From a bacterium (lineage in GTDB: Bacteria > UBA6262 > WVXT01): a DNA stretch of 24,111 nucleotides. The stretch is taken from positions 1-24,111 of the forward strand of contig JBHIBS010000024.1 in NCBI GenBank assembly GCA_046759165.1, written 5' to 3'. The notes beneath the pieces are model-generated. The model saw only the letters and a list, made by a program, of their open reading frames with translations. It searched no databases and had not been told where the DNA came from. A program made the position numbers and the translations under genes. Shown one piece after another: positions 3,146 through 7,813 of this stretch; the stretch's first letter is position 1; each line of letters opens with the position of its first letter.

Positions 3146-4570
3146 ATGGTATATAAGCGGATAGAAGAGGGTACTATACAGAAGCTCAGAGATATCGTTG
3201 GCGAAGAGAACTTGATTTATGAACAGGAGAAAATGGTCGACTATAGCCATGACGAGTTTGCCCTCGAGTCGATAAGGAAACTTCCTGAGGTGGTGGTGAA
3301 ACCGAAAAACAGTGAGGAGATTTCCGAAATTCTCAAACTTGCCGATAAGGAGAAGTTTCCGGTCACTGCCCGGGGAGGTGCCACAGGACTTGTGGGTAGC
3401 TGCGTTCCTCTGTATGGCGGTCTGGTTCTTTCTCTAGAAAATATGAATGAGGTTCTGGAAGTAGATACAGAAAATCTTATGGCAGTGGTCGAGGCAGGTG
3501 TCCCATTAATGGAGTTCTATAAGAAGGTAGAAGAGGCGGGACTCTTCTTCCCTCCCCATCCTGGTGAGGAGAGTGCAAACATAGGAGGAGTTATAGCCAC
3601 CAATGCAGGTGGCTCAAGGGCAGTTAAATATGGAATAATAAGGAACTTTGTCAAGGGACTGGAAGTCGTTCTGTCCACAGGAGAAATAATAAACATCGGT
3701 GGAAAAATTATGAAAGACAGCGCTGGCTATAGCCTCCTCAATCTGATGATAGGCTCCGAAGGCACTCTGGGAATTATTACCAAAGCCACAATTTCTCTCC
3801 TCCTGCCACCAAGAGCTATGTTTACACTGGTTGTACCTTTCAATAGCGTTCGCGATGCCATAAAGACAGTTCCCTTGATAATAAAGAGTAAGACAGTTCC
3901 TATGGCAATAGAATTTCTGGAGAAGGAGCCCATCCTTGTTACTGAAGAGTATCTCCAGAAGAGATGGCCCTCTCGGGAAGGGGAGGCATATCTTATGATA
4001 ATAATAGATGGCTCCAGCGAACAAGAGGTGATGGAGCTTTCGGAATCTGTAGGAGAGTTATGTTTTGCCAATAATGCGCTGGATGTCTTTGTGGCCGATA
4101 CTAAAGAGAGACAGGATAATATATTGAACATAAGGAGCCAAATCTATGAAGCTATTAAGCCTTACACAATCGAGATACTGGACATCACCGTTCCGCGAGC
4201 ACAGATTACCGCTCACGTGGAGAAGGTACATGAGATCGCGGATAAATATGATGTCTGGTTGCCCACATACGGCCATGCAGGAGACGGGAATGTGCACACC
4301 CATCTCATGAAAGTCAAATTTAAGGAAGGGAAGATAGAAGAGGCAAAAGAAGGATGGGAGAAGAAGTATCGCCAGGTGCGAGAAGAACTCCACATAGATG
4401 GTATAAATAGAGGAGGAACTGTTTCAGGAGAACATGGGATAGGCATAGTGAAGAAGGAGTATCTATCTATGGCCCTGAGCGAAGCCCATATTGAGATTAT
4501 GAAGGGGATAAAGAAAATTTTCGATCCAGAAAATATTTTAAATCCAGGGAAGATATTTGACCTTGCTTAG
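3146..4570 (+). CDS. FAD-binding oxidoreductase, GlcD / D-lactate dehydrogenase (LctD) family
   Basis: RGGATGLVG FAD motif, ATNAGGSRAVKYG, GSEGTLGIIT, HAGDGNVH, SGEHGIG, ILNPGKIF; GGAGG SD. Confidence 0.92.
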   Translation: MVYKRIEEGTIQKLRDIVGEENLIYEQEKMVDYSHDEFALESIRKLPEVVVKPKNSEEISEILKLADKEKFPVTARGGATGLVGSCVPLYGGLVLSLENMNEVLEVDTENLMAVVEAGVPLMEFYKKVEEAGLFFPPHPGEESANIGGVIATNAGGSRAVKYGIIRNFVKGLEVVLSTGEIINIGGKIMKDSAGYSLLNLMIGSEGTLGIITKATISLLLPPRAMFTLVVPFNSVRDAIKTVPLIIKSKTVPMAIEFLEKEPILVTEEYLQKRWPSREGEAYLMIIIDGSSEQEVMELSESVGELCFANNALDVFVADTKERQDNILNIRSQIYEAIKPYTIEILDITVPRAQITAHVEKVHEIADKYDVWLPTYGHAGDGNVHTHLMKVKFKEGKIEEAKEGWEKKYRQVREELHIDGINRGGTVSGEHGIGIVKKEYLSMALSEAHIEIMKGIKKIFDPENILNPGKIFDLA

Positions 4571-4577
4571 GATCCTT

Positions 4578-4943
4578 CTATTTTCTTAAGATTACCCTTT
4601 TTTTCATTCTCTTTGCACAAAAAAATTTTTTGGCGAAATTTGCGGCTTTCTCTGTATCGAATTGCTTACAGGAGAATATGTTGATATAAGCAGAATTCCA
4701 GAGCTCGGAGAAATGGCCGATGATGGAACTGGACTCAATGAATTGGACGAGAGAATAGCCCGTAGTGTAAGGCTGCTTCAGTCCAAAGTGGAGAATAGAA
4801 GGTTTGCCACATTTTTTCATCTTTATTAGACTGCACAAATTATCGATGAAATCACTCAATTTCCTACGGGAGCGAATTGTTTTCTCATCGCAACCGTAGA
4901 GGTCAAGCATAAGTTCTGTGCCATAAGTTTCTCTTCTATCCAT
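4578..4943 (-). CDS. Divergent S-adenosylmethionine decarboxylase-fold pyruvoyl proenzyme (substrate uncertain)
   Basis: G-x-ELMLDLYGC N-terminus; GYSLVQFIESSSIIGHF aligns with the AdoMetDC cleavage region; AYINIFSCKQFD keeps the conserved Cys; overlaps speE stop by 8 nt. Confidence 0.8.
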   Translation of the reverse strand: MDRRETYGTELMLDLYGCDEKTIRSRRKLSDFIDNLCSLIKMKKCGKPSILHFGLKQPYTTGYSLVQFIESSSIIGHFSELWNSAYINIFSCKQFDTEKAANFAKKFFCAKRMKKRVILRK

Positions 4944-5802
4944 TTCTTTTAGTCTCCACTGTTTCCTTTATATGAGTGGGCAAGGCAAACGAAGCGAGAT
5001 GAATTTCCGGATTATAGTATCTGGTTTTTAGTTTAAATTTCCTATACCTTTTTTCTAGTTGTGATAGGCGGATATTCAGGGGATCAATCCCCTTAGAAGC
5101 GAAGACAAAACTGAAGAATCCGCCCACATAGGTGGGAATAGCTGTCAAAAAGATAGCCACAAAAGGGAATATTTTCTTCAGTCTTTTATATACATAAGGG
5201 AGTTCTTCTCTCTGAAGAAAAGGCGAGCCCGTCTGTTGAGCAAATATTCCGTCGCCGTTGGAAAGTGCATTAAAGGCATCCCGATAGAATTTCGATGAGA
5301 AAAGCACTTTTGATGGACCAATAGGGTCTGAAGAATCAATTATCGTCACGTCGAATTTTTCCTTGCATTCCTTAATGAAGTTTACTCCATTGTCAATTAT
5401 TATGTTAGCCCGCCTGTCGGCAAAAGAATTTCTACAAATGGGTGAAAGATAGGTTTTCGACAGTTCAATTACTTTCTCGTCTATTTCTACTAAAAATACT
5501 TCCTTAACCGGATGTTTCAGGACTTCTCTCAAGGCCCCTCCGTCCCCACCTCCGATAATTAGTACCCTTTTCGGATGAGAATGAGAGAGCATGGGTAAAT
5601 GAGTCAGCATCTCGTGGTAGATAAATTCATCTGCTTCTGTGGTCTGTACAATTCCGTCTAAAACTAATACCTTGCCAAATTCATAAGTATTTAAAATATT
5701 AATCTTCTGATATGGACTCTTCTTCGAAACGAGAGTTTCCTTAACCTTAAGCCCCAATTTCACCGAAGGGAAAAGAGACTCATAAAACCACGTTTCCTTC
5801 AT
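4936..5802 (-). CDS. speE: Polyamine aminopropyltransferase (spermidine synthase)
   Basis: LDGIVQTTEADEFIYHEML, VLIIGGGDGG, VEID, DSSDP motifs. Confidence 0.96.
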   Translation of the reverse strand: MKETWFYESLFPSVKLGLKVKETLVSKKSPYQKINILNTYEFGKVLVLDGIVQTTEADEFIYHEMLTHLPMLSHSHPKRVLIIGGGDGGALREVLKHPVKEVFLVEIDEKVIELSKTYLSPICRNSFADRRANIIIDNGVNFIKECKEKFDVTIIDSSDPIGPSKVLFSSKFYRDAFNALSNGDGIFAQQTGSPFLQREELPYVYKRLKKIFPFVAIFLTAIPTYVGGFFSFVFASKGIDPLNIRLSQLEKRYRKFKLKTRYYNPEIHLASFALPTHIKETVETKRNG

Positions 5803-6185
5803 TGCAGAATTCCCCTCTTAAGTTCCAGTAGCTGCATCTTTTTAGGCTTGAATGCCTTCTTTAATACAGGAATAGCTTTATATGGATTTACTTCCCCGCA
5901 GACAAAAATATCGATTGCCACATATCCAAACTCAGGCCAGGTGTGGATAGTGAGGTGGGATTCTTTAATAATTGCTATGCCCGATATTCCTTGGTTAGGA
6001 GAAAAATAGCGCAGTTTTATTTCTAAGAGGGTAGCGCCGGAGGCATCAATTGAATCAATCAAAGCTTTCTTAACTTTCTTTAAGGAGGTAATATTTATAG
6101 CTCCCCACAGTTCTAAGAGAAGGTGAGTCCCTGCGTAGTCAAATTGCTCGCACTTGCTGTAATATCCCCTCGCTTTCTTTTTCAT
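5799..6185 (-). CDS. speD: S-adenosylmethionine decarboxylase proenzyme (class 1B, short type)
   Basis: GTHLLLELWG; KESHLTIHTWPE (canonical E/SH cleavage site); DIFVCG; GGAGAGG SD; 4-nt overlap with speE start. Confidence 0.93.
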   Translation of the reverse strand: MKKKARGYYSKCEQFDYAGTHLLLELWGAINITSLKKVKKALIDSIDASGATLLEIKLRYFSPNQGISGIAIIKESHLTIHTWPEFGYVAIDIFVCGEVNPYKAIPVLKKAFKPKKMQLLELKRGILQ

Positions 6186-6338
6186 CCTCTCCCTTTTAAG
6201 TTGGTGGTAACTTACTAAGGAGTTCTTCTAATTTATTTAATAAATGCCGTTAGAAATTTTGCTATAAACCTTTACGCAGGAGATATTTCTAATGGAGTAA
6301 AGCTAAGTCATGGCTTTACCGGAATTTTGATTTTTGTT

Positions 6339-6367
6339 ATTTTAACATCTTAGAAAAAATTTGTCAA
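6339..6367 (-). promoter_or_regulatory. Sigma70-type promoter of the polyamine operon
   Basis: Minus strand TTGACA (6367-6362), 17 nt, TAAAAT (6344-6339), with extended TG. Confidence 0.8.
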
Positions 6368-6430: not shown

Positions 6431-6473
6431 CGACCCGGTTCTGTTTTCCACTAGAAGTGAGTGGTGATTGCAG

Positions 6474-7813
6474 ATGGCATCTGCACTCTTAATATATCCA
6501 TGGATATACGATTTTGCCGCTTACGATTTATGGCTTAAGCTCCTAGGGTTACTCTATATAGCAAGCATACTAAGAAAACTCGCAATTAAGGTTAACTTTA
6601 TAGACTGTCTGGACAGATACCATGAGAGTTTGTCTCCTTCTTTAGGAAATAGTGTTTCTGAGAAGAAGTACGGTTGCGGGACATACTACTATGAAGAAGT
6701 AGAAAAGCCTCAACTGCTTAAGAAGTTTCCTCGAAAGTATAAGAGATATGGACTTCCTGTTCAGTTCTTTCTCGAAGAGATTGGCAAGTTGTCCACACCG
6801 GATATTATTCTGGTGAGTTCAGGTATGACCTATTGGTATCCCGGAGCCTTTGAAACAATTAAAACACTCAAAGTAAAATTTCCCGAAGTTCCCATAATTC
6901 TGGGAGGCACATATGCCACACTATGCTACCAACATGCACTCGAAAGCTCGGGAGCCGACTATGTATTTAAGGGAGGAGATCTGGGCAGGTTGATAAGATT
7001 GGTAGAAGAGATTACAGGAGCCGATTTCTCTAAAGGAAAATTGCCTTTAGATTCTTTCAGTTATCCATATCCAGCTTACGACTTATATCGAAGGAATGAG
7101 TATGTGGCTATAAGGACTTCTATGGGGTGCCCTTTCAGATGTACATACTGTGCTGTCAATCTATTGAACGGAAAATTTGAACAGCGAAAGCCAGAACTGG
7201 TGGTAAGAGAAATCGAGCATTTTCATAAAAATTTGAGCGTGAAAAATTTTGTCTTTTACACTATTCTTTATTGTTCGATGAACAGAAACATTTCAGGAGA
7301 ATCCTTGAGCTTATATTGAAGCTTAAACTCGATTGCTTTTTTCACAGGCCTAATGGGCTTCAAGCAAGATTCCTTACTTATGATGGGGCAAGATTGATGA
7401 ACAGAGTTAGCTTTATAAATCCGAGATTAAGTCTTGAAACAGTTAACGAGAAGAGGCAGATGGCGTCTGGAAATAAGGTTACCAGCGGAGAGGTAGAGAA
7501 AGCACTTCGCTATCTGGAAGAAGCGGGCTACTCTTCCAGCCAGGTCGGAATATATGTTATGATGGGCATGGCCGATCAGCCATTTGAAGAAGTCTATGAG
7601 ACGATGCAGTTTGTGCACAAACTGGGAGGCAAAATTTTGCTGGTAGAATACTCACCAATTCCGGGAACAAAGGAATGGGAGAAAAGTTTATTGGAGGATA
7701 ATCTCAATGCCCTTCTTCACAACAATTCATTATTTGCATTATACGATGTTAAAGATTGGAAGGAATTTCAGAAATTGAAAGACGAAGCACGAAGGCTAAA
7801 TCGAAAATATTAG
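6474..7813 (+). pseudogene. Frameshifted cobalamin-binding radical SAM protein
   Basis: ORF 6468-7319 carries the B12-binding-like N-domain (PWIYDFAAYDLW, MTYWYPG, GGTYATL) and CPFRCTYC; ORF 7271-7813 carries the rest (PNGL, LET, YSPIPGT); frame changes near 7260-7270 (FVFY then LLFDEQKHF in another frame). Confidence 0.8.

Follow-up and report, generated by a model that had tools for sequence, protein, structure and literature searches.

Putrescine synthesis by a pyruvoyl enzyme that descends from S-adenosylmethionine decarboxylase (AdoMetDC) has been described for a number of organisms by Li et al. (JBC, 2023; PMC10407285). The closest characterized relative of the protein studied here is WP_128700171, which was purified and is a pyruvoyl-dependent L-ornithine decarboxylase (ODC) termed SpeDC. 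It acts on L-ornithine with a Km of 0.073 mM and a kcat/Km of 113 M-1 s-1 (Table 3 and text of that paper), has no activity with L-arginine or L-lysine and does not rescue spermidine synthesis in an E. coli speD deletion strain (Li et al., 2023). Genes for SpeDC cluster with speD/speE, casdh/casdc or hss, and spread of speDC by horizontal transfer has been proposed (Li et al., 2023). Clusters of speD, speE and speDC are described for Ca. Atribacteria (PIU25646), Anaerolinea thermophila UNI-1 (BAJ63311) and Ca. Sumerlaeota (MBN1518199) (Li et al., 2023). We describe here an operon of this type in a 24,111-nt stretch of bacterial DNA (GenBank assembly GCA_046759165.1, contig JBHIBS010000024.1, positions 1 to 24,111), which we call the window. 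The operon consists of speD, speE and a second AdoMetDC-fold paralogue as third gene, referred to as D2, whose substrate is most likely ornithine. The enzyme class and the speD-speE-speDC cluster type were already published in 2023, and the operon is a further example that leaves knowledge of the enzyme class unchanged. It adds one more lineage to the organisms that make putrescine in this way; the words Bacillota, Firmicutes and Clostridia have 0 occurrences in the available text of Li et al. (2023).

Judged by the text descriptions, the window and the published clusters from Atribacteria, Anaerolinea and Sumerlaeota have in common two SpeD homologues and one speE, with no canonical arginine decarboxylase (ADC) or ODC and no agmatine-to-putrescine enzymes. 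In the published clusters AdoMetDC activity was shown for one homologue (in tests of Sumerlaeota and M. hungatei) and ODC activity for the other. The same two activities are found beside speE in the SpeD-SpeDC fusions of Desulfotignum phosphitoxidans (EMS77273) and Ca. Omnitrophica OLB16 (KXK35843) (Li et al., 2023), however, these are one protein, while the window has separate genes with speE in between.

In a gap-free alignment of 116 residues, D2 and the characterized ODC WP_128700171 share 62% identity and 80% similarity (E 4e-50). In contrast, D2 shares only 29% identity with the neighbouring SpeD, and SpeD aligns with WP_128700171 over 51 residues only (31%). The exact sequence of WP_128700171.1 is encoded by the single PF02675 gene in the complete genome of Ca. 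Velamenicoccus archaeovorus LiM, a 126-aa open reading frame (ORF; L023:3971-4351). The scan that recovered it covered one genome per species and kept the best 80 loci, among which LiM is the only characterized source; among the 20 protein clusters read, no other accession from Li et al. (2023) was seen. LiM SpeDC falls in the same length class as D2 (126 vs 121 aa), belongs to the same AdoMetDC class 1b Pfam family with a close score (66.2 vs 65.8 bits) and shares the core FIE(T/S)SSI(T/I)GHFSELWNSAYINIFSC. The proteins differ next to the processing serine, where LiM SpeDC has Thr before and Thr three residues after it and D2 has Ser and Ile. The gene context is also different: LiM has no other SpeD homologue, and its speDC gene adjoins a carboxynorspermidine-synthase-like gene instead of lying in a speD-speE operon. 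Public sources still call WP_128700171 and the named relatives of D2 "S-adenosylmethionine decarboxylase", so that metabolic reconstructions of such genomes will be in error when they list the putrescine route as missing.

The Pfam family PF02675 (AdoMet_dc) matches D2 with 65.8 bits over residues 11-120, while the AdoMetDC equivalog TIGR03330 reaches only 28.5 bits, under its cut-off of 75.65. A sequence search of the PDB with D2 gave no match at E up to 1, so that a fold search was needed. The AlphaFold2 model (pLDDT 95.2; alignment A1, 33 sequences) matched Thermotoga maritima AdoMetDC (1vr7/1tlu) in Foldseek with a TM-score of 0.83-0.85 and a root-mean-square deviation of 1.9 Å. Hence, D2 has both the domain and the fold of class 1b AdoMetDC, at about 21% identity to the T. 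maritima enzyme (1tlu, 1vr7, 1tmi) in the structural alignment. In T. maritima S63, H68 and C83 are the processing and catalytic residues (Li et al., 2023). D2 reads FIES71/S72SIIGH77FSE...IFSC92 (S72 codon 4728-4730), and its Ser, His (+5) and Cys (+20) keep the T. maritima spacing, from which self-processing between residue 71 and Ser72 is predicted. At the positions just before and just after this serine, D2 has Ser in place of the canonical Glu and His. Furthermore, the motif GHFSELW is without the proline of HTWPE, a residue fully conserved in bona fide AdoMetDCs and not in SpeDA, the SpeD-derived arginine decarboxylases (Li et al., 2023). A search of 5.8 billion proteins with D2 returned 117 close relatives, all with PF02675. 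Q67, S72, H77, N88, F90, S91 and C92 are found in 118/118 sequences including D2, within the core G-Y-S-L-V-Q-F-I-E-T-S-S-I-T-G-H-F-S-E-L-W-N-S-A-Y-I-N-I-F-S-C. Searching the 50%-identity representatives exhaustively yielded 1276 clusters (E up to 0.001), among them two-domain proteins of 245-282 aa that D2 matches in two stretches. A tblastn search of a phage collection with D2 gave no match at 1e-5.

SpeDC is set apart from AdoMetDC and SpeDA by four residues, which are in sequence order Gln, Thr, Phe and Tyr (Li et al., 2023). We contrasted the alignment columns of 33 SpeD-type proteins (32 loci plus the window) with those of 81 D2-type proteins (80 loci plus the window), and four columns switch cleanly between the two types. 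Position 67 is Ala in SpeD-type and Gln in all 81 D2-type proteins, position 71 changes from Glu to Thr (77/81) or Ser (4/81), position 78 from Thr/Ser to Phe (81/81) and position 86 from Ala to Tyr (79/81). At these putative diagnostic positions D2 of the window has Gln67, Ser71 (not Thr), Phe78 and Tyr86. The signature Q-T-S-H-F-Y-C is present in 76/81 D2-type proteins, and four of the five deviating ones have Ser71 (Q-S-S-H-F-Y-C in three, including the window, and Q-S-S-H-F-F-C in one). The SpeD-type proteins mostly show A-E-S-H-T/S-A-C. A tree of 203 rows (IQ-TREE quick search, 129 columns) places the 33 SpeD-type rows and the other 170, including the characterized ODC, on two sides of a branch with an SH-aLRT support of 99. 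The rows comprise both decarboxylases of the window, the 80 D2-type and 32 SpeD-type proteins of the loci, and 89 single-domain representatives, namely those of at most 160 aa among 150 listed of the 1276 clusters, so that longer fused forms are excluded. D2 of the window stands in a starred five-member clade with four metagenome-assembled genomes (MAGs) titled "Clostridia bacterium". Many inner forks are unresolved and two SpeD-type rows sit on very long branches. Thus, identity and tree alike group D2 with the one proven SpeDC of the data set rather than with AdoMetDC.

The first two genes of the operon have canonical features. SpeD matches PF02675 with 113.1 bits and TIGR03330 with 119.7 bits, above the cut-off at which D2 fails, and in a PDB sequence search it hits T. 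maritima AdoMetDC (1tlu/1vr7; E 4e-23), the core ESHLTIHTWPE...D.F.C being near-identical. Its motif is IIKE/S76HLTIH81TWPE...FVC96, with the cleavage site at E75/S76 (S76 codon 5958-5960). By alignment Ser76, His81 and Cys96 are equivalents of T. maritima S63, H68 and C83, and Pro84 of HTWPE is present. With the equivalog match, the Glu-Ser site, His, Cys and Pro all in place, we assign SpeD as a bona fide class 1b AdoMetDC. SpeE carries PF01564 (Spermine_synth, 208.2 bits) and the N-terminal tetramerisation domain PF17284 (58.7 bits) and exceeds the cut-offs of the equivalog models TIGR00417 (323.8 vs 249.55 bits) and NF002010 (354.7 vs 260 bits). Among solved structures it comes closest to those of the T. 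maritima, E. coli and B. subtilis spermidine synthases (1inl with E 1.9e-71, followed by 3o4f and 1iy9), and we assign it as a spermidine synthase. A second aminopropyltransferase-like gene of the genome codes for a membrane protein of 763 aa that belongs to the fused MFS/spermidine-synthase subfamily (NF037959, 62 bits, cut-off 40; contig C10, locus L087 547-2838, minus strand).

The genome was searched for other routes to putrescine, and all absences given here refer to its assembly of 165 contigs, which is 92.4% complete. Nothing matched the arginase family with SpeB (PF00491), agmatine deiminase AguA (PF04371; AguB was not searched separately), the AAT-fold ornithine/lysine/arginine decarboxylases (PF01276), PdaD (PF01862) or the deoxyhypusine-synthase-like SpeY. 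The sole match to PF02784, the alanine-racemase-fold decarboxylases, is LysA (TIGR01048, 494 vs 297.9 bits), encoded between argH and dapF. This PF02784 search gave no CASDC-like hit, and the carboxyspermidine route is therefore unlikely. Only two PF02675 genes are present, both in the operon. ArgJ is encoded (486 bits), thus ornithine is made, and the genome also has a methylthioadenosine phosphorylase (TIGR01694, 329 vs 274.85 bits). As far as the assembly goes, the genome accordingly has no canonical ADC or ODC and no agmatine-to-putrescine route, and shows neither SpeB nor AguA; a genome containing SpeDA is expected to encode SpeB or AguA/AguB for the use of agmatine. Genomes with an anomalous SpeD and without an agmatine-to-putrescine route were predicted and found to encode ODC (Li et al., 2023), and the pattern seen here is the one which that study uses to predict ODC rather than ADC.

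From these observations we propose that the operon very probably converts ornithine and S-adenosylmethionine to spermidine by means of two self-processing pyruvoyl enzymes and one aminopropyltransferase. Ornithine would come from the arginine pathway via ArgJ. D2 (SpeDC) would cleave itself between Ser71 and Ser72, turn Ser72 into the pyruvoyl cofactor and decarboxylate L-ornithine to putrescine, while SpeD would cleave itself at Glu75/Ser76 and decarboxylate S-adenosylmethionine. SpeE would then attach the aminopropyl group to putrescine, so that spermidine is formed and methylthioadenosine is released, the latter to be removed by the phosphorylase. The whole pathway would run without any pyridoxal phosphate (PLP) enzyme, and the operon can be seen as a compact, PLP-free cassette from ornithine to spermidine. 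Ornithine as substrate and putrescine as product of D2 are most likely because of the 62% identity to a proven ODC and because no agmatinase or agmatine deiminase was found. The initial annotation had proposed that the second paralogue was repurposed as a pyruvoyl amino-acid decarboxylase and provides the amine acceptor of a self-contained three-gene pathway. Both parts are supported by our analysis and become narrower, the first to ornithine and the second to putrescine. Its statement that speA, speB and speC are missing from the window also holds, and none of the three turned up in the whole assembly either; the phylogeny of both paralogues puts D2 on the side of the characterized ODC.

Several points weigh against an ornithine-specific D2. 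The specificity is deduced from sequence comparison, the genome absences depend on an incomplete assembly, and the tree has a single characterized anchor, WP_128700171, with no characterized SpeDA and no further ODC. That positions 67, 71, 78 and 86 are the diagnostic four of Li et al. (2023) is likewise deduced from our column contrasts. Moreover, the arginine decarboxylase of Pelagibacter phage HTVC201P groups with the SpeDC clade (Li et al., 2023), so that clade membership does not fully fix the substrate. Finally, Ser71 and Ile75 of D2 (window 4728-4733 and 4719-4721, minus strand) replace the consensus Thr on either side of the predicted pyruvoyl serine. Within the bacterial family of the window Ser71 is found only in D2 and one 95%-identical relative, while four named relatives with 78-81% identity to D2 keep Thr71. 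Among the close homologues Ser71 occurs in 10/117 (11/118 with D2) and among the loci in 3/80 (4/81 with the window), where Ser has replaced Thr in scattered distant lineages (L054, L058, L083); Ile75 is rare (3/118). Both appear to be conservative substitutions of recent origin beside the pyruvoyl serine, and since the relatives with about 80% identity keep Thr71, the Ser71 change is recent and probably neutral.

These points bear on three other readings of D2. It could be an L-arginine decarboxylase of the SpeDA type or a dual arginine/ornithine enzyme, with agmatine either aminopropylated by SpeE or converted to putrescine. SpeD-derived arginine decarboxylases did arise several times, one of them within the SpeDC clade (Li et al., 2023), and the residue before the serine of D2 departs from the SpeDC consensus. 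The crenarchaeal enzyme of Sulfolobus solfataricus, an independent emergence (Li et al., 2023), is a neofunctionalised class 1b paralogue beside a bona fide one, as is the case here. However, that enzyme is highly similar to its own AdoMetDC paralogue and SpeDA proteins in general are much like AdoMetDC (Li et al., 2023), whereas D2 is far from its own paralogue, groups with the ODC and has the Gln, Phe and Tyr of the SpeDC type. D2 is also closely related to an enzyme without detectable arginine activity, and agmatine or aminopropylagmatine would be a dead end in a genome in which no agmatinase/ureohydrolase or agmatine deiminase was found. We therefore consider arginine an improbable substrate. 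It is similarly improbable that D2 acts on L-lysine or 2,4-diaminobutyrate or that it is a non-catalytic modulator of SpeD like the trypanosome prozyme, even though the changes at positions 71 and 75 adjoin the pyruvoyl serine and the trypanosome AdoMetDC/prozyme heterodimer is among the weak fold matches of D2. Retention of Ser72, His77 and Cys92 speaks for a functional enzyme, Thr71 is present in the family relatives of about 80% identity, and none of the SpeDC proteins characterized by Li et al. (2023) used lysine. That D2 is a second AdoMetDC, as the Pfam match and the public names of its relatives (the characterized ODC included) would have it, is extremely improbable given its TIGR03330 score, the missing HTWPE proline, the failure to match any solved AdoMetDC in a search where SpeD does, and a closest characterized relative that could not replace speD in E. 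coli (Li et al., 2023).

With D2 as the predicted ODC, the distribution of the cassette can be considered. The genes run speD-speE-D2 in 25 of the 80 related loci, and two more have speE-D2 cut at a contig end. D2-speD-speE occurs in three loci and speD-D2-speE in one, the two decarboxylase genes are adjacent with no speE in the flank in five, and in 44, the LiM locus included, D2 has neither partner within about 4 kb. All eight searched genomes of the window's family contain D2 (78-82% identity), while a search with D2 did not find it in two other genomes of the order and one other of the class. Among the best 80 loci, the nearest relatives of both decarboxylases outside the family are MAGs labelled Omnitrophota or Planctomycetia. 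This distribution would fit a gain of the whole cassette by horizontal transfer, in agreement with the mode of spread proposed by Li et al. (2023). Six MAGs labelled Omnitrophota or Planctomycetia carry two D2-type genes each at separate places (L020/L052, L043/L076, L042/L079, L050/L055, L056/L063, L021/L053).

The operon lies on the minus strand (Table 1). The three ORFs score far above the Pfam cut-offs and are therefore real genes, not chance ORFs, and a purine-rich ribosome-binding site lies ahead of each start codon. Reading of the sequence shows a 4-nt overlap (ATGA, 5799-5802) between speD and speE and an 8-nt overlap (ATGGATAG, 4936-4943) between speE and D2, which suggests translational coupling of the three genes. 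The initial annotation had given the gene order, both overlaps, and the canonical motif of the first decarboxylase against the altered one of the second (IES/SSIIGHFSE) as we find them here. It had further placed the genes behind one strong promoter. A near-consensus site is indeed present, from which the operon is probably co-transcribed, and the word strong reflects the consensus match only.

Table 1. Features of the polyamine operon and its upstream region in the window, with other genomic copies of the dispersed palindrome.
Feature	Position	Strand	Basis
speD, class 1b S-adenosylmethionine decarboxylase proenzyme, 128 aa	5799..6185	-	PF02675, TIGR03330, 1tlu/1vr7 match
speE, spermidine synthase / polyamine aminopropyltransferase, 288 aa	4936..5802	-	PF01564, PF17284, TIGR00417, NF002010
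speDC (D2), predicted pyruvoyl-dependent L-ornithine decarboxylase proenzyme, 121 aa	4578..4943	-	PF02675, 62% identity to WP_128700171
sigma-70-type promoter TTGACA-17-TAAAAT, extended -10 TG (putative function)	6339..6367	-	11/12 matches
~150-nt leader, central hairpin (includes 6250-6292) and ribosome-binding site hairpin	6186..6338	-	fold, family alignment
Dispersed palindrome	window 6250-6292; C3:10382-10457, C3:38458-38565, C5:46254-46281, C5:49929-49969, C10:45012-45078, C100:149-223		

The promoter is the best of nine promoter-like sites in 2.3 kb scanned (mean of shuffles 5.6) and is letter-for-letter identical in seven aligned related upstream regions. It lies about 154 nt before the ATG of speD, so that a long leader follows. 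Promoter and leader are conserved in nine distinct family sequences. The consensus fold of the leader has a long central hairpin and a second hairpin, CUCCUU...AAGGGAG, over the ribosome-binding site, whose pairs are kept in 9/9 distinct family leaders almost without covariation. Most pairs of the leader never vary (covariation term -0.11 kcal/mol), and the single-sequence fold has a z of -2.0 against shuffles. Rfam gave no match on the window at gathering thresholds and, for the leader, chance-level hits only at E up to 10. A covariance model of the leader (R1) run on 40 distant loci gave two matches at E 0.43, neither upstream of speD. The central hairpin is one copy of a palindrome dispersed over intergenic regions, TTAGAAAT-N10-60-ATTTCTAA, which CCCC/GGGG often flank. 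The palindrome has eight matches at seven places of the genome (Table 1), against 0.13 on average in 30 shuffles. It has no fixed orientation to the genes around it and looks like a repetitive extragenic palindromic (REP)-like repeat. Weak R1 hits elsewhere in the same genome are explained by this palindrome. One could imagine the leader as a new cis-regulatory RNA that senses polyamine or S-adenosylmethionine and gates translation of the whole operon via the ribosome-binding site hairpin. We think this unlikely: with such a z value, next to no covariation and chance-like matches in distant loci, a riboswitch claim is not warranted. A dedicated riboregulator is possible but unsupported beyond sequence conservation within one bacterial family, given that the central hairpin is a dispersed repeat.

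Downstream of the operon a GlcD-like FAD oxidase is encoded convergently (3146-4570), and the gene upstream is divergently oriented. A B12-binding radical SAM gene (window 6468-7813, plus strand) is split into overlapping frames at 6468-7319 and 7271-7813, which we read as a frameshift or assembly error. In the relatives L004-L007 the speD promoter directly follows the end of the DUF72 gene, and this segment of about 1.4 kb is thus peculiar to the window.

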